34,828 bases of DNA from a virus (taxonomy: Duplodnaviria > Caudoviricetes), in the IMG/VR virus record IMGVR_UViG_3300034815_000019, positions 1 to 34,828 of that record; one strand, given 5' to 3'. The stretch's first letter is position 1. Each line of letters begins with the position of its first letter. Both the position numbers and the translations under genes were made by a program. Of the stretch, positions 636 to 12,118 are shown piece after piece. Under the pieces are notes generated by a model. That model was not told the origin of the DNA and made no database searches. It saw only the letters and a list, made by a program, of their open reading frames with translations.

Positions 636-667
636 TCCGTAAGCCCCGGCTCACCTAAGCGTTAGGC
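582..667 (+). repeat. attC site 1 (86 bp)
   Basis: GCATAAC-acgtc-ggtcgagccg...cggctcacc-taagc-GTTAGGC. Confidence 0.85.
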
Positions 668-846
668 AACATCGCCCGGTCTACCGCAGCATCGAACGCA
701 TCCTGCGGAATCGGCCATGTGCGTCGCCTCTGCACCAGTCCGAGCATTTCTCCGGCCATCTTGTCGTCTTGCCGCGCCGGTTGCCCGGCCCGCATCCATG
801 CCGAGAGTGCGCGGTATCTCGCTGCGTCTTGTGCGTTGTTGTCCAT
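655..846 (-). CDS. Cassette ORF: small phage protein with DAARYR...DAAVDRAM motif
   Basis: Motif typical of phage early-region accessory proteins; GGAG RBS; ends PNA* inside attC 1. Confidence 0.75.
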   Translation of the reverse strand: MDNNAQDAARYRALSAWMRAGQPARQDDKMAGEMLGLVQRRRTWPIPQDAFDAAVDRAMLPNA

Positions 847-868
847 ACGCCCGTCTCCGTAAAAAGTT

Positions 869-931
869 GCCTAACCCGGCGCTCAAGCGGGACCGTCCGC
901 AAGCGGCCGGCCCCTTAGCTCTGCGTTAGGC
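869..931 (+). repeat. attC site 2 (63 bp)
   Basis: GCCTAAC-ccggc-gctCaag...cttagc-tctgc-GTTAGGC; extra C in L''. Confidence 0.93.
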
Positions 932-932
932 G

Positions 933-1106
933 TCAAACCCATATCCCGCTACCTGATCTGCGCAGCGTGATTCTTGGAAGCCACCGTTTGATTGATACAG
1001 CCAGTTTGTGCGAGTATATTTTTGTCTCCCACATGATGCGAAAGAAACGAAATTGCCTTTCTTCCGGCGACCACCTACCAACCCATTTGAATCTTAAATT
1101 TTTCAT
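933..1106 (-). CDS. Cassette ORF: small basic, Trp-rich hypothetical protein (alternative start 1118)
   Basis: Fills cassette 926-1193; GGAG precedes ATG 1106. Confidence 0.6.
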   Translation of the reverse strand: MKNLRFKWVGRWSPEERQFRFFRIMWETKIYSHKLAVSIKRWLPRITLRRSGSGIWV

Positions 1107-1126
1107 TTTGTTCTCCATAAAACCCC

Positions 1127-1199
1127 GCCTAACCCGGCGGTCAAGTTCGCCCTTCGGGCTGGGACGGGCTATCGCCCGCCCCTTACCTTTGCGTTGGGC
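1127..1199 (+). repeat. attC site 3 (73 bp)
   Basis: GCCTAAC-ccggc-ggtCaag...cttacc-tttgc-GTTGGGC. Confidence 0.92.
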
Positions 1200-1528
1200 G
1201 TCAAAAAACTAGCTTCGCTTTGTTCCAACGCATATTGCAATTGTGCGTTGTATTGGCGCAGTTTTCTGTTCTCTTCGTGTAGTTCTGCGATCACCGCGGC
1301 CTTGTCGGCGAGTTGTTTCTGGCTTACTCTGAGATTGTTTCCTGCTTCTTGTAGTAATCCAAAGTTGTAGTCGAAAGCAAAATTTGTTTGTCTAACTAGC
1401 TCTTCCTGCGAATTTATACCTGCCTTTTCTGCATCATTCCAAAGATAGCGGCAGGCAGAGCGGTTAATCATGTCACTGGATGACAAATCATTTTCAGTCC
1501 ACCAGTCGTCAAATTTATCAATTTCCAT
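1169..1528 (-). CDS. Cassette ORF: coiled-coil hypothetical phage protein
   Basis: 119 aa; GGAG RBS; C-terminus PNAKVRGGR* read through attC 3. Confidence 0.75.
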   Translation of the reverse strand: MEIDKFDDWWTENDLSSSDMINRSACRYLWNDAEKAGINSQEELVRQTNFAFDYNFGLLQEAGNNLRVSQKQLADKAAVIAELHEENRKLRQYNAQLQYALEQSEASFLTPNAKVRGGR

Positions 1529-1551
1529 TTCTTTCTCCGTGGTTAAAATAC

Positions 1552-1610
1552 GCCCAACCCGGCGTTCAACGCGGAGCCGCTAAAGCGGCCCGGTTAACTC
1601 TACGTTGGGC
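1552..1610 (+). repeat. attC site 4 (59 bp)
   Basis: GCCCAAC-ccggc-gttCaac...gttaac-tctac-GTTGGGC. Confidence 0.93.
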
Positions 1611-1924
1611 GTCTTGGGCTTCGCCATCTCCGCAGCAGCTCGCACGATGGCGCGCCGAACCGATACACAAGGATCGTCGCCGAGTGGTTCCGTCCATGAC
1701 CAAACTTGACCGTTGTCCCAGCCTGGGCGCGGAGCCTCGAACCACACCACGACCGTTTCGCCTTCGTATTCGTGGTCAATCCGCAGTTTCACCGCCAGAC
1801 GCAATGCGTCGCCGTCGTCTTCGAGCGGGTTCCACCCCGCGCCGTCGTCCCATGATTCGGCCGGCACGAAGTTGGTTCCAATCGCATTCGCCGCCAGTTC
1901 AAGCAGCTCGCTGTCTGTCATCAC
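1580..1924 (-). CDS. Cassette ORF: phage protein with WNPLEDDGDALRLAVKL and RRAIVRAAAE motifs (NinX/DUF2591-like)
   Basis: Motifs recognised as a common phage nin-region family; ends PNVELTGPL* in attC 4; family name is tentative. Confidence 0.7.
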   Translation of the reverse strand: MMTDSELLELAANAIGTNFVPAESWDDGAGWNPLEDDGDALRLAVKLRIDHEYEGETVVVWFEAPRPGWDNGQVWSWTEPLGDDPCVSVRRAIVRAAAEMAKPKTPNVELTGPL

Positions 1925-1951
1925 AGTATCCTTTCGTTGTAGTTACAATCC

Positions 1952-2015
1952 GCCCAACCCATCGGTCGAGCGCGACGGGCGAAAAGCCGCCCGCGCCTCA
2001 CCTCAAGCGTTAGGT
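1952..2015 (+). repeat. attC site 5 (64 bp)
   Basis: GCCCAAC-ccatc-ggtCgag...ctcacc-tcaagc-GTTAGGT. Confidence 0.92.
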
Positions 2016-2623
2016 GCCTTTGGGTATGGCTCGGGCCGATAGCGCAAACTTGCGAAAATATCGGCCCTGCGCCGCCCCTTAGCGTTGATAAAAACATACC
2101 TGTGCTTCCGTGGCCTGTCCTGCAAACTGAACCTGTCGCCAAACTCTGCGCGTATTTCTGCCGCCGTGTATTTGTCGGCGAGCGTCTGGCAGTGCTTGCT
2201 CATTCCGTCAATCGTCCAGTTCGTGCGCTTCGCGGAAAGCCCTGTATAAATCCAGTTGGTCGCCTGATACACAATCCCGACATGCCCTTGCTGAATCTCG
2301 GCGAAAGAAACAACAATCTCTTTTCCGGCCTTACCAACGGTGCGCCCTATCAGGTAGCTTTCCCCGTTGCGCGGCACGCTGTCGCAAACCCATAGCCGCG
2401 TCAGCTCTGCCACGTTGCAGGCGTTCTCTGGCCCCGCAATGCCGCTGCGTAGTGGTGCGCTGCTCGGCGTCCCGTAGCAAACCACGCCTTTCAACTGGTC
2501 GCCGAGAAACAAACCAAACGCCACGCTGCAAGGTGCTTTCCGGTGCAGGTAGTGCTCTCGCACAATTACCGCCATCGCTGTTGCGTAGTCAATCTGTTGT
2601 ATCCGGTAATTCTCAAGCGCCAT
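2003..2623 (-). CDS. Cassette ORF: Mom-family (GNAT-fold) DNA adenine modification protein
   Basis: Motifs EHYLH, ELTRLW, PRNGES, VVSFAE, GHVGIVYQATNWIYTG match the Mu Mom-like pattern. Confidence 0.82.
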   Translation of the reverse strand: MALENYRIQQIDYATAMAVIVREHYLHRKAPCSVAFGLFLGDQLKGVVCYGTPSSAPLRSGIAGPENACNVAELTRLWVCDSVPRNGESYLIGRTVGKAGKEIVVSFAEIQQGHVGIVYQATNWIYTGLSAKRTNWTIDGMSKHCQTLADKYTAAEIRAEFGDRFSLQDRPRKHRYVFINAKGRRRADIFASLRYRPEPYPKAPNA

Positions 2624-2658
2624 CGTTTTTCCTTAAAAGTCGGCTCTGGCAACACGGC

Positions 2659-2725
2659 ACCTAACACGTCGCTCAACTCGGACTGGCGCAAAATGCCGCG
2701 CCAGCCGGTTAGCTAGGCGTTGGGC
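2659..2725 (+). repeat. attC site 6 (67 bp)
   Basis: ACCTAAC-acgtc-gctCaac...gttagc-taggc-GTTGGGC. Confidence 0.92.
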
Positions 2726-2729
2726 GTCG

Positions 2730-3026
2730 TCATTTGTCGCCACGCTTTACATGCACCCACTTTTTCGGCTCACCGTCTTTGTGAATCACAGGAGGCTCCA
2801 GCACCATGCCGGGTGGGATGATGCCGCCCGTTTCTGGCAGCGGCAGCAGGCCGGCTTGTGTCATTTCGTCCGCGATCTTTTCGAAGTAGAGCGTGCAGCT
2901 CTGGCCGTAGTCTTCGACTGGTTTGCCGTCCGCGTCGAGAATGTCGCTGAACTCGCCAGGGTTTGCCGCATAGCGCCGCGCCCACTCGTTGAAAATTGCC
3001 GTCATCCGCTGCTGTGTTGTGTTCAT
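2730..3026 (-). CDS. Cassette ORF: hypothetical protein
   Basis: 98 aa; AAGGA RBS; fills cassette 2720-3131. Confidence 0.75.
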   Translation of the reverse strand: MNTTQQRMTAIFNEWARRYAANPGEFSDILDADGKPVEDYGQSCTLYFEKIADEMTQAGLLPLPETGGIIPPGMVLEPPVIHKDGEPKKWVHVKRGDK

Positions 3027-3067
3027 TTTTTTCCTTTCGTTTCACAAGTCGGCTGTGGCGGTACGCC

Positions 3068-3137
3068 GCCCAACCCTGCATTGGAGATGGACCGTCCGCA
3101 TAAAGCCGCGGCCGGCCCCTCAATTTGAACGTTAGAA
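3068..3137 (+). repeat. attC site 7 (70 bp)
   Basis: GCCCAAC-cctgc-attggag...ctcaat-ttgaac-GTTAGAA; core similar to site 2. Confidence 0.88.
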
Positions 3138-3335
3138 CTCCAGAACATAAAATGAATGAATCCAATCTTCAAATTTCGCTTTGCTGGTTTCCATTCCTTC
3201 GCCGGATGAATGCCCAATCCAATAGCCACAGTTGGATGTGCGAGTAATGGTGTACTCTCCAACACACAGGCGTTCTAACCCGGCGTTCGAGCGGGAGCGC
3301 GCAAAAGCGTCTTTCGTTTCTTGTTCGTCGTTCAT
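3132..3335 (-). CDS. Cassette ORF: hypothetical protein starting inside the attC 8 loop
   Basis: 67 aa; ATG 3335 in the loop; TAA stop lies in the R' box of attC 7. Confidence 0.65.
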   Translation of the reverse strand: MNDEQETKDAFARSRSNAGLERLCVGEYTITRTSNCGYWIGHSSGEGMETSKAKFEDWIHSFYVLEF

Positions 3336-3365
3336 AGTGCGCGCCCCCTCAACTTCGCGTTATGC
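3273..3365 (+). repeat. attC site 8 (93 bp)
   Basis: TTCTAAC-ccggc-gttCgag...ctcaac-ttcgc-GTTATGC. Confidence 0.9.
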
Positions 3366-3527
3366 CCCTAGTCCGTCTGCCAGCTTTTCTAGGGCTTCTT
3401 CCAGCGTTTGGATTCGTGTCCACATCGCGCTCTTTGCGTGTTGCGGGATGGCTGGGTCTAGCGTCATACCGCGCAGCATGTTGGCGGTTTCATCAACCAG
3501 CGCGTAAATTTCGTCGTTGCTCATCAT
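3360..3527 (-). CDS. Cassette ORF: small hypothetical protein (MMSNDEIYALVDE...)
   Basis: GGAGAG RBS before ATG 3527/3524; TAA stop lies in the R' box of attC 8. Confidence 0.7.
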   Translation of the reverse strand: MMSNDEIYALVDETANMLRGMTLDPAIPQHAKSAMWTRIQTLEEALEKLADGLGA

Positions 3528-3550
3528 TCTCTCCAAGTAGTTGCACCGTG

Positions 3551-3614
3551 GCATAACACGTCATTCCACCGGACGGGCGATAAAGCCGCCCGCCTGTGAA
3601 TTCAAGCGTTGGGC
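3551..3614 (+). repeat. attC site 9 (64 bp)
   Basis: GCATAAC-acgtc-attCcac...gtgaat-tcaagc-GTTGGGC. Confidence 0.92.
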
Positions 3615-3952
3615 GCCCCGTACACCTTGTTGTAGTAGGAGAGAGCACGGATGATCTGCGCAGCGGTGTTGGAGTGGCCGCGCTTTTCGCGCCACCGCGC
3701 CGCCTCAAATTGCCCCTGTTTGAGTCGGTCGTATCCGCACGCGGCACAATTTTTCCAGCGGCTACCGGGTCGGTAGCCGTAACTACGGCTACTTGCCCCG
3801 CAACGCGGGCAACAAGCTGTCTTTTTCGACCCGCCGGATTTGCTTTTGCCAGCAAACGGCAGCCTGCAAATGAGGGTTGCTAGGACGCCCAACCCTACAT
3901 TCGAGCTGGACTGGCCGATAAGTGGCTCCGTTTGCGGTTCAGTGGTGTTCAT
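3602..3952 (-). CDS. Cassette ORF: Zn-ribbon protein (CPRC...CAAC) starting inside the attC 10 loop
   Basis: GGAGGA RBS and ATG in the loop; two CxxC motifs; ends PNA* in attC 9. Confidence 0.7.
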   Translation of the reverse strand: MNTTEPQTEPLIGQSSSNVGLGVLATLICRLPFAGKSKSGGSKKTACCPRCGASSRSYGYRPGSRWKNCAACGYDRLKQGQFEAARWREKRGHSNTAAQIIRALSYYNKVYGAPNA

Positions 3953-4009
3953 GGTGCATTTCCTCCGTTTTGGCTGGTGACGGCCAGCCCCTCAATTTGA
4001 ATGTTAGGC
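3887..4009 (+). repeat. attC site 10 (123 bp, long loop)
   Basis: GCCCAAC-cctac-attCgag..ctggccg-loop-cggccag..ctcaat-ttgaat-GTTAGGC. Confidence 0.88.
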
Positions 4010-4176
4010 ACGGCAAGTCCGGCCAATTTCGCAAAAAAATCCGCAGTCACCTCTGCGTATCTTCCGCCGTGATCGCATTTCACTTTTCCGCACTGCGGGC
4101 ATTTATACAACTCCGCAGAATCTTGTGGTAACGTCACCAGCAAAGACCCGCAGCACTCGCATTCCCAATATCTCAT
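3949..4176 (-). CDS. Cassette ORF: small Zn-finger protein (CECC...CPQC)
   Basis: GGAGGA RBS; Cys clusters; C-terminus read through attC 10. Confidence 0.7.
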   Translation of the reverse strand: MRYWECECCGSLLVTLPQDSAELYKCPQCGKVKCDHGGRYAEVTADFFAKLAGLAVPNIQIEGLAVTSQNGGNAP

Positions 4177-4188
4177 CTAATCCTCCAT

Positions 4189-4257
4189 GCCTAACATTTG
4201 CGTCAACGCGGACGCTCCGCTCCGCTTCGCTACGCGCCGGTTACGCCAGCGTTGGGG
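4189..4257 (+). repeat. attC site 11 (69 bp)
   Basis: GCCTAAC-atttg-cgtCaac...gttacg-ccagc-GTTGGGG. Confidence 0.9.
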
Positions 4258-4264
4258 TGCTCAA

Positions 4265-4453
4265 TGAAGAGGGCTGGTCGCTACTCCAGCACTGATAGCG
4301 GCTTCTCCCGGCCAGTGTCTCACTCACTGCCTGTGCGGTACTGGTTCAGACCTTTGATCTTTGGCGTCATCAATCCAGTATTTGCAGCGTTTCCCGCCTG
4401 TTGGCGCTGCTCCGATCATTTAGCCCGGCGTCTTGCTTCCCGCCTGCCTCTTC
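4265..4453 (-). ncRNA. Candidate tRNA-like structured RNA filling an ORF-less cassette
   Basis: 7-bp terminal stem GAAGAGG/CCTCTTC, D-arm-like GGCG/CGCC, T-arm-like GCTGG-8nt-CCAGC, and three further internal hairpins. Confidence 0.55.
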
Positions 4454-4461
4454 GTTCAACA

Positions 4462-4529
4462 CCCTAACCATACAATCAACCTGACCGTACGGATAAAGCC
4501 CCGCCCGTCAGGTTACTTCCACGTTACTC
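4462..4529 (+). repeat. attC site 12, terminal (68 bp; R' = GTTACTC, non-consensus after GTT)
   Basis: CCCTAAC-catac-aatCaacctgac...gtcaggttact-tccac-GTT. Confidence 0.85.
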
Positions 4530-4757
4530 AAACCTCAACCCGCTGCACATAAACCCGGCATCATCCCCGATGTTTTCATCCGTCATCACCCGCTCCATCC
4601 GCTCCCGGTGATGGCGGATCATCTGGCCGAAGCTGCGATTGCTGGATTCAATGGCTTCCTTGCAGGTCTTGCGAATGTCCATCTTGGCGGATTCGGTGAA
4701 AAGTTCGATTGCGAAGTGACGATCGATCCTGGTGTGGTCTGGTAGTGGGGTGATCAT
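4524..4757 (-). CDS. Hypothetical phage protein; its TAA stop overlaps the terminal R' crossover
   Basis: 77 aa; AGGAG RBS. Confidence 0.65.
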   Translation of the reverse strand: MITPLPDHTRIDRHFAIELFTESAKMDIRKTCKEAIESSNRSFGQMIRHHRERMERVMTDENIGDDAGFMCSGLRFE

Positions 4758-4820: not shown

Positions 4821-4973
4821 TCATTTCATCCTCAAAAGATGCGCTGCAACAGCCCTGCGGATAATCTCAGCAACCGGCGCTCCAGTCTTTTCTGATAGTT
4901 CGCGCAACTTTGCATCCATGTTTTTAGGCATGAATAGGTTAACTCTAGTCATTGGTTTGTTTTGTGTAGTCAT
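4821..4973 (-). CDS. Ribbon-helix-helix (CopG/Arc-like) regulator, 50 aa (not in ORF track)
   Basis: MTTQNKPMTRVNLFMPKNMDAKLRELSEKTGAPVAEIIRRAVAAHLLRMK: beta strand, helix, G-x-x-x-x-E-I-I-R-x-A helix. Confidence 0.85.
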   Translation of the reverse strand: MTTQNKPMTRVNLFMPKNMDAKLRELSEKTGAPVAEIIRRAVAAHLLRMK

Positions 4974-4978
4974 GTGTA

Positions 4979-5008
4979 ATTATATGTATAAGTTACCAGG
5001 AATGTCAA
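4979..5008 (-). promoter_or_regulatory. Consensus sigma70 promoter pointing into the RHH gene and cassette array
   Basis: TTGACA (5008-5003), 18 bp, TATAAT (4984-4979); ATG follows 5 nt after the -10. Confidence 0.8.
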
Positions 5009-5048
5009 GTATTTTATACGCCTGCCCCTGAGCTGAAAATAATAATTT

Positions 5049-5570
5049 TTATATCAGAAAACCCCTATGCTGCATAAAATCTACTGGATGTTTTACGCTC
5101 TTCTGCATATTGCAGACTGACCTCAATAATTGCATATTGCTGTCCACGTTCTGATCTCCAAGAGCAAAACCACAACAAATACATTTACCACGTTGCAATT
5201 TAAACAATTTTTCTGCCAATCCTTTTGACAAAGTTCCTCCATTGTTGAGCTTGCGTGCTCTCCTATTTTGCCTATGAATTCTTCTTGCATCTGGGTTATT
5301 TTTTGACCATGAATTTGTTTGTTCTTTTTGTTTTTCTGTCCGTGTATTTTTAGATCGCCACATTGCGTTAGCTTTCTTCTTTTTTTCTGGATTTAATTTT
5401 GCCCACTCCAATGATTTTACTTTTACTTTTTCTGGATTTAATTTTGCCCAAGATGCTGATTTTTCACTACAGCATTTTTTACAATGTGATTTTAAATATG
5501 GTTTCCCGCGTTCTTTTACGGAAAACGCTTCGAGCGATTTTGTTTCGCCACATCTAGTGCATGATTTCAT
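5049..5570 (-). CDS. HNH homing-endonuclease-like protein with the DH catalytic segment deleted (alternative GTG start 5585)
   Basis: N-terminal CxxC...CxxC; C-terminus paralogous to 33580-34335 but lacks YHMDHIVPLSLGG. Confidence 0.8.
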   Translation of the reverse strand: MKSCTRCGETKSLEAFSVKERGKPYLKSHCKKCCSEKSASWAKLNPEKVKVKSLEWAKLNPEKKKKANAMWRSKNTRTEKQKEQTNSWSKNNPDARRIHRQNRRARKLNNGGTLSKGLAEKLFKLQRGKCICCGFALGDQNVDSNMQLLRSVCNMQKSVKHPVDFMQHRGFLI

Positions 5571-5601
5571 TTTGATGCCCTTCACGGCAAGTTGAATTAT
5601 T

Positions 5602-5653
5602 GCCAGTAATCCGATTGTGAAGAATCGGAAAGGATTGCAATCCCTGTCCTAGC
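5602..5653 (-). ncRNA. C4-antisense-like structured leader upstream of HNH copy 1
   Basis: TATAAT at 5665-5660; closing stem with two hairpins; loop CTTCAC complementary to GTGAAG (5585-5580) at the translation start region. Confidence 0.5.
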
Positions 5654-6132
5654 TTTTTAATTATACTATTAACATTAGAAAGATAACATCAGGATGTTTG
5701 AGCAAGCCAAGCCCATCCTAGAGAAAGGCCTCGCTTACAATATGCGTCAGTCTGTCGTCGCGTATCGCCATTTCAGCCTTTTCGCGTCAGGGTGCTAAAA
5801 TACGCCCGCCCAGTTGAGTGTTTCAACGCTATCCCACAGTTCTCAAATCTTCCTTGACCGCTGCTGTTACCCGACCAGTCAAGTGCTCAGAACCTTTACG
5901 CAACCAGCTCAGGGTCTGCCCCCTCGCATCAGTTTCGATACGTCAGCCTTACGGGCAACCGTGCGAACTTCGACGCGGTGCGTGTTGTTTCAGCCCTTAT
6001 CCCCCCGGTACACAAATCCCCCATAACCGCCGGTCTTTATCCTCCCCGGCTATGGCGTTTTACCTGGCTGCCTTCTGAGTGGCACTTTATATCCAGCTAA
6101 CTTCGGTCTGGATTCCATTTGCTACAGGCAAT

Positions 6133-11356: not shown

Positions 11357-12118
11357 GTGAACATTCATCAGCGCATCAACGAAGTACGCAAGAAGATCGA
11401 CTACATCAAAAAAGAAAAGGTCGTGCAGACCTACAAAGCCGTCACCCATGACCAAGTAACTGCGATGGTTCGTGATTACATGGTTGAATTCGGGATCGTT
11501 ATTTACCCTGATCTGGTCTCAACTGTCACTGTAGATACTGGCGAGAGGACATCTAAGGGCACCCCGATGATCCGCGTCGAGGCGGTGTACGACTTCGATT
11601 TCGTCAACATCGAGGACGGCGCAGACCGCGAAACCGTGCGCGTTTCGGCTCATGCCAATGACACGGGCGACAAGGCACCAGGAAAGGCACTGAGCTATGC
11701 CAAGAAAATGGTGGTCCTGAAGGTGTTCGAAATTGAAACTGGCGAGGATGACGAAAGCCGCTACGACGAGTTCGATACTGATGCCGCCGTTGCCAAGCTC
11801 GCAGCCGCCAAAACGATTGATGAGCTAAAGGTGCGGTTCCAAGAGGCGTTCGACGCATCTAGCAAGGACTCTACTGCGCAAAAAGCCATCATTCTGGCAA
11901 AGAACAAGCGGGCGAAGGAGCTGGAAGATGAAAAAATTACCCATGACGAGGAAGCTGAGTGGGGGCGGAAATTTGTGGAATGTACCAATGATGTTGACTT
12001 AAAAAATGTGTGGAGCCTGTGTCTAGCGAGGATTAAAGAAACGAATTGCCGTGAAGCTGGGGATAGGATGAAAAATGTCATGCTTGCCAAGCACGAAGCG
12101 CTAGGAGAAAAAAAATGA
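11357..12118 (+). CDS. ERF-family single-strand annealing recombinase
   Basis: DTGDKAPGKALSYAKK...FEIETGEDDES motif; GGAGG RBS, GTG start. Confidence 0.85.
   Translation: MNIHQRINEVRKKIDYIKKEKVVQTYKAVTHDQVTAMVRDYMVEFGIVIYPDLVSTVTVDTGERTSKGTPMIRVEAVYDFDFVNIEDGADRETVRVSAHANDTGDKAPGKALSYAKKMVVLKVFEIETGEDDESRYDEFDTDAAVAKLAAAKTIDELKVRFQEAFDASSKDSTAQKAIILAKNKRAKELEDEKITHDEEAEWGRKFVECTNDVDLKNVWSLCLARIKETNCREAGDRMKNVMLAKHEALGEKK

Follow-up and report, generated by a model that had tools for sequence, protein, structure and literature searches.

Integrons are regarded as devices of bacteria, with cassettes directed away from attI, and the first making of cassettes is a long-standing open question. 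Here we describe an integron-type array in a virus of the class Caudoviricetes, the linear IMG/VR phage record IMGVR_UViG_3300034815_000019 (92% complete), all 34,828 nucleotides of which were analysed and are called the window below. In the passages covered of Nivina 2016 (PMC5027507) and ACID (PMC2674596), an attC site comprises R'', L'', L' and R' boxes and an extra-helical base, with the crossover in AAC, and a cassette begins with the first T of R' and ends with the G of the R' that follows; per ACID, the cassette's own attC is that of the circular form. Phage attC clusters are already published: the parts of Qi et al. 2023 (PMC9892861) covered here report 17 phage-borne attC-site clusters that have no integron integrase (CALINs), and five of six tested phage attC sites recombined with attI1. 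The window very probably holds eleven integron-type phage cassettes (positions 662–4523) whose genes are antisense to attC and which are likely moved at G|TT by an IntI that the contig does not encode. This reversed, phage-run layout is the notable part of the locus, not the matching of cassette ends.

A site detector based on R and L boxes found 12 attC sites between 582 and 4529, all with the top strand on the plus strand, and none elsewhere in the window; shuffled sequences gave an expectation of about 0.1 site per 35-kb window at the lowest site score. The sites are 59–123 bp long with invariant AAC (R'') and GTT (R'), and certain cores deviate from RYYY/RRRY. Their alignment shows L'' and L' boxes, fixed spacers and an extra-helical base at L'' position 4 (C in 10 of 11 sites, G in one), and bottom-strand hairpin folding in nine of 11 sites was well separated from shuffles (z −2.4 to −5.0). 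With at least two attC sites and no intI nearby, the contig as assembled is a CALIN by definition.

An earlier note on this DNA had claimed that the R'' of each cassette pairs with the cassette's own start, and all 11 matches were recovered at the same positions with the same scores. With R'' and R' in register, R'' agreed with the unit's own 5' end at 54 of 55 bases at core positions 4–8 and with the R' of its in-array site at only 30 of 55, in line with the mismatch that the note had described. None of 200,000 permuted pairings, the control it had proposed, reached 54 (mean 34.2, maximum 52, p ~5e-6). Because four units have the core GTTGGGCG in common, the test was repeated on the seven units with distinct cores, for which the observed pairing was the best of 5040 orderings (p = 0.0002). 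The significance fades past about position 9 (positions 10–14, p = 0.09). With 7–8 flanking bases, folding of the circular-form site equalled or surpassed that of the in-array site in all 11 units, and with 10 flanking bases it did so in 10 of 11. IntI would recombine the bottom strand, which is the coding strand here, in its folded form as in any integron, the cut falling in AAC, and for this reason every unit would have retained its matching ends.

The end match was equally strong in bacterial integrons, with a mean of 4.52 of 5 in 81 units from 20 regions beside IntI against 4.35 of 5 in 188 viral units (permutation means ~2.65), and it is therefore a general cassette rule, unsurprising by itself. 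The 20 regions were among the best-scoring of 118 IntI-positive genomes in 301 searched; two of the tallied genomes are marked unpublished (G334 and G073), and no other claim depends on them. The end match is thus the ordinary, already known cassette footprint, and it confirms that these are genuine cassettes. The earlier note was right on the footprint and overlooked the reversed polarity of the genes.

Ten of the 11 window units carry a minus-strand ORF with a motif resembling a ribosome-binding site (RBS), antisense to the attC top strand; family matches were obtained for three of these ten ORFs and for none of eight plus-strand ORFs. Six of the ten reversed ORFs extend past the crossover and have their stop in the neighbouring attC, two end at the crossover and two before it. 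The layout is hence not that of a canonical array, which has its ORFs on the attC top strand and its cassette promoter (Pc) at the attI end. Among 156 viral units with at least four of five core matches, 124 combined an RBS-like motif with a reversed ORF and five with a canonical one, and PHROG matches were found for 53 of 145 reversed ORFs against one of 103 canonical ORFs (viral cassettes, window units included). When the longer ORF was scored, 58 of 72 bacterial units were canonical, seven reversed and seven without an ORF, against 42 canonical, 111 reversed and eight without among 161 phage units. An earlier length-only orientation count (93 reversed, 16 canonical, 30 unclear) was dropped as too crude. 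One array that is otherwise reversed, that of the phage locus L243, has a lone canonical-strand ORF with a family match (2048–2401, helix-turn-helix/CII-like). Reversed polarity of phage cassettes was not found in print in a search that left most subscription papers outside.

At the far end of the array, a 12/12 match to the sigma-70 consensus (4979–5008, minus strand) is directed through the gene of a ribbon-helix-helix (RHH, Arc-like) regulator (4821–4973, minus; PF01402, phrog_876 and phrog_582) and a 77-aa ORF (4524–4757, minus) into the cassettes, and is the predicted cassette promoter. Transcription would run from this consensus via the RHH gene across the attC sites, the six ORFs that enter a neighbouring attC taking their stop codons from it. 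Since the bottom strand carries the cassette genes, these would be read from this far-end phage promoter, and a Pc at the attI end would be unnecessary. The ATG of the RHH gene lies five bases downstream of the -10 box (4973–5008, minus), so that the mRNA would be leaderless; autoregulation of the array by the RHH protein is possible. A LexA-box test was uninformative (none of 16 phage loci, two of 28 bacterial loci). The 77-aa ORF is the right anchor of the array, with its stop codon within the last R' core. No matching R'' for this R' occurs in the contig, and no relatives of the ORF were found in a search that may have left near-identical records outside.

Natural junctions support movement of the units as cassettes at G|TT in three cases, judged by sequence comparison. 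The first is cassette 5 (2010–2719, plus; attC 2659–2725), which carries a Mom-like DNA modification gene (2003–2623, minus; phrog_1384, PF25680). Its homology (87% identity) spans window positions 2009–2721 in the viral locus L009 and 2006–2714 in L008, where its neighbours differ on both sides, and stops at the crossovers. In two further loci (L010 and L252), both cores around the Mom-like cassette are unlike those of the window, yet they match each other. The second case is cassette 11 (4252–4523, plus; attC 4462–4529), whose homology in the phage MW202573 begins at 4250. The third, cassette 6 (2720–3131, plus; attC 3068–3137; ORF 2730–3026, minus), has homologs flanked by attC in three of five loci (L371–L373), with an end match of 10/10 in L371; one of the other two (L374, 67%) is without a site, and L375 is a weak match of 24 residues. 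In a contig of sequencing run X1, 2717 is joined to 3130, and the 412 bases left out (3131 − 2719) are exactly cassette 6. This joint has only four shared letters and was seen at both 90% and 95% likeness, with depths in that run of 12.2 before the cassette, 7.6 with it and 5.2 without it. The crossover at G|TT proposed earlier is thus borne out both by the ends of phage homology and by a natural variant without exactly one unit. Other contexts were thus found for three of the 11 units (cassettes 5, 6 and 11), and loose ends hint at them for two more. The loose ends show other DNA after the cassette 9 core (run X3) and before cassette 11 (X2) and another attC arm left of 652 (X1 and X2). The earlier conclusion that all units were once independent circles stands in so far as they are attC cassettes moving at G|TT; a separate entry of each into the phage is not demonstrated.

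Among 47 records that contain such sites or the Mom-like cassette, two had an IntI above the score cut-off of 265 bits, as had one of the ten near-complete records. One of these, the temperate phage G002 (locus L160), has a terminase in common with the window (69% DNA identity); there, cassette 5 directly adjoins a non-attC, attI-like junction, which is followed by intI (450 bits). This intI shares its strand with the cassette genes and, as is usual in integrons, is directed away from the attI-like site; no promoter consensus was found around the junction. The complete phage integron (1842–2940 of the locus) lies just before an excisionase-like ORF and a phage integrase. The layout is repeated in a second phage, G026, with 11 sites. 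The attI-like motif derived from these two junctions matched 86 viral stretches representing 66 distinct sites, at 24 of which (the two motif sources included) an IntI match lies 65–173 nt downstream; 16 of the 24 have attC upstream. Many of the remaining matches belong to an unrelated AT-rich family, and the motif was absent from 50 bacterial IntI loci. Equal IntI scores and attI sequences are followed by different first cassettes in L176, L183 and L191, and likewise in L169 and L186. Seventeen phage IntIs formed one branch against 30 bacterial IntIs (support of 99 in the Shimodaira–Hasegawa-like approximate likelihood ratio test, SH-aLRT), in a tree for which both sets were chosen with bias; it and the tree of Mom-like proteins described below are quick trees with SH-aLRT support only. 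The nearest relatives with names come from Rhodocyclaceae, Thiobacillus and Sulfuricella. In the locus L172, a truncated intI match lies between two attI-like sites (74 and 976) separated by 900 bp. An IntI-like protein on a long branch, 45% identical to that of G002, is encoded in Virus Rctr41k (KX853513, locus L317; 4680–5678), in the first 10.6 kb of which the detector found no attC.

For the window, supply of the integrase in trans, by the host or by a co-infecting IntI phage, is reasonably probable. Its being encoded in the missing 8% of the genome is possible and somewhat doubtful; the place would be the left end, which attI and intI occupy in related phages. A wider reading, which we regard as plausible but not yet as probable, is that an integron system of their own is at work in phages of Betaproteobacteria, with a phage-specific IntI clade and attI and with native accessory genes, namely DNA methylase, Mom-like and Lar-like genes, in reversed cassettes under phage operon promoters, that integrase-less phages trade in the same pool, and that new cassettes arise from ordinary phage genes.

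True cassettes by origin might instead now be gained and lost by homologous recombination or hairpin slippage, not by IntI. The window encodes an Erf-like protein (11357–12118), near-identical attC bodies common to several phages offer possible homology, and nine of the ten near-complete records with sites lack an IntI over the cut-off. We nevertheless consider this very unlikely, since the four letters shared at the cassette 6 joint are few, cassette homology stops at the core and not within attC bodies, and slippage would be expected to remove a site, not a whole unit.

It is also extremely unlikely that the array is a frozen block from a bacterial chromosomal integron, in which the ends record bacterial events and nothing moves in the phage. 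Such an origin would suit the lack of an integrase in the contig, the capture of pieces of host integrons by phages described in the passages covered of Qi 2023 (PMC9892861), and the presence of IntI in 118 of the 301 genomes sampled from the order around a Nitrosomonas metagenome-assembled genome (MAG), with the same end match. Of the bacterial cassettes, however, 58 of 72 are canonical, they exceed phage ones in length (medians of 498 and 316 bp), and the cargo of the window is phage-type. Cassette 5 was in no bacterial integron among 65 genome matches, the one close match being to a MAG contig of 2.6 kb whose polarity is reversed, and a variant without exactly one unit exists. There is practically no chance that the units are small terminal-inverted-repeat elements, similar to miniature inverted-repeat transposable elements or repetitive extragenic palindromic (REP) sequences, or that their hairpins are terminators: each unit does have an 8–10 bp inverted repeat at both ends, but the inter-unit DNA has L boxes, the extra-helical base and fixed spacers, the alignment lacks a target duplication, no terminator-like site coincides with a whole attC site (8 terminator-like sites against 8.7 in shuffles), and the same units adjoin attI and intI elsewhere, so that attC anatomy and IntI-linked copies refute this and the earlier note had rightly set terminators and REP repeats aside.

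Several points weigh against integron-type cassettes with reversed phage genes moved by IntI. No tyrosine recombinase is encoded in the contig and the attI-like motif was not found in it (13 matches with two mismatches, 15.8 expected), the left end being missing. Circles and recombination by IntI, both of which we infer, were not directly observed. The folding of sites 9 and 10 is barely above shuffles (z ~ −1), only three of the ten window ORFs have a family match, 42 of the 161 phage units have their longer ORF on the canonical strand in what is a crude length test, and the promoter is a consensus match alone. The cassette 6 deletion is seen in one contig of one of four runs, with 26 letters on the short side; the run may itself be the source sample, and the depth of 6.1 just right of the joint is below the expected sum.

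The window encodes terminase, portal, capsid, primase and helicase, and the array follows the replication genes, heading toward the broken left end of the contig; a terminal repeat was not found in the contig. Neither seven primase relatives nor 18 helicase relatives (all at most 64% identical) revealed a sibling genome; attC-type sites were in none of the seven primase loci listed, and the helicase loci had no array, one of the 18 having a single site. The first site, attC site 0 (582–667, plus), closes a left-hand unit whose own 5' core is missing from the contig, and the body of this site is 90% identical in the IntI-bearing locus L243. Further left, positions 1–581 hold three minus-strand ORFs and a possible decayed half attC (207–257, plus; R'', L'' and a stem without L' and R'), read by eye and negative by the detector. 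Depth in run X1 was ~3 over 1–581 against 12 for cassettes 1–5, and the contig of that run with cassettes 1–5 shows another attC arm to the left of position 652; the left end as assembled could represent a minor variant.

Cassette 1 (662–925, plus; attC 869–931; ORF 655–846, minus) has an attC body 98–100% identical to those of three other viral loci with different flanks, and no metagenome contig was found with its motif in a search that may have left near-identical records outside. Such bodies, 98–100% identical between AAC and GTT, sit on unrelated genes with different cores (window 869–931; L107, L128 and L228). Cores differed in 17 of 18 pairs of near-identical bodies in bacteria and in 30 of 41 in phages; body swapping between genes was rejected as a phage-specific trait because bacteria show it too. 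Next come cassette 2 (926–1193; attC 1127–1199; ORF 933–1106), cassette 3 (1194–1604; attC 1552–1610; ORF 1169–1528) and cassette 4 (1605–2009; attC 1952–2015; ORF 1580–1924, phrog_5086). Beyond cassettes 5 and 6 lie cassette 7 (3132–3359; attC 3273–3365; ORF 3132–3335), cassette 8 (3360–3608; attC 3551–3614; ORF 3360–3524, phrog_13384), cassette 9 (3609–4003; long attC 3887–4009; ORF 3602–3952) and cassette 10 (4004–4251; attC 4189–4257; small Cys-rich ORF 3949–4176). All of these cassettes are on the plus strand and their ORFs on the minus strand; the ORFs of cassettes 7 and 9 possibly start within their own attC. Cassette 11 is conserved and likely non-coding: MW202573 and L251 have it at ~85% identity with the same borders, and indels there break the reading frame. 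Its predicted fold (4252–4468) has a long closing stem, with two-sided changes at three of 59 predicted pairs in only three sequences. It matched no Rfam family, giving only a chance match at E ≤ 1, and is possibly a structured RNA or a regulatory cassette. No Rfam family reached the gathering score across the array; the sole match was Betaproteobacteria-1 RNA (RF02932, 64.7 bits) at 5768–5885 (minus), a hint of the host group. In contigs of runs X1 and X2, 5038 is followed by 32 other letters and then by 5893, the HNH-type gene and the region of this RNA being absent, which suggests that 5039–5892 is an optional insert.

The named cargo of the viral cassettes is rich in genes for DNA methyltransferases and Mom-like and Lar-like proteins, possibly anti-restriction functions. 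In a tree of 102 Mom-like proteins, those of the window, L008–L011 and L252 formed one branch (support 86), and the detector found no flanking site in the remaining family (96 of the 101 homologs have no label, in the case of L252 because its sites were missed). Sites around the Mom-like gene went undetected in L009 (on the attI side), L010 and L252, and AT-rich loci yielded chance matches; the cassette label of L263 in the tree is probably false. This quick, unrooted tree fits a phage Mom-like gene having turned cassette once. Since the clade of Mom-like cassettes lies within a family of mostly attC-free phage genes, the states of one gene before and after can be compared, and if phages do run an integron system this would be a traceable case of cassette birth.

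The closest described relatives, the phage CALINs of Qi 2023, are likewise attC clusters in phages without an integrase, and one of them, MW202573, has cassette 11 of the window. MW202573 is reversed by its own annotation, whereas TJE1 is canonical, with three sites and its annotated ORFs on the plus strand; the passages covered of Qi 2023 (PMC9892861) do not report antisense genes or a phage-specific IntI or attI. Insertion at genomic GWT (attG) sites, with single attC sites lacking integron integrases (SALINs) and CALINs, is a route for seeding an integrase-less array in the portions covered of bioRxiv 10.1101/2022.09.11.507474. In the window the right-anchor GTT at 4523 does overlap the stop codon of a fixed gene, but attG insertion accounts for one or two cassettes, not for reversed phage genes among twelve sites of one orientation.

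Sedentary chromosomal and class 1 arrays have the same R''/L''/L'/R' anatomy, crossover and end match as the window array, which differs from them in its antisense genes, its predicted promoter at the far end and its ORFs entering the neighbouring attC. The reverse integrons of the Treponema type have intI flipped and genes canonical to attC. They resemble G002 and G026 in that intI and cassette genes are on one strand, but in these two phages it is the genes that are flipped, with intI canonical to attC. The reversed polarity limits models of how attC becomes attached to genes, and the layout of the window is one of phage genes packaged the opposite way, exchanged between phages and polymorphic in a natural population.

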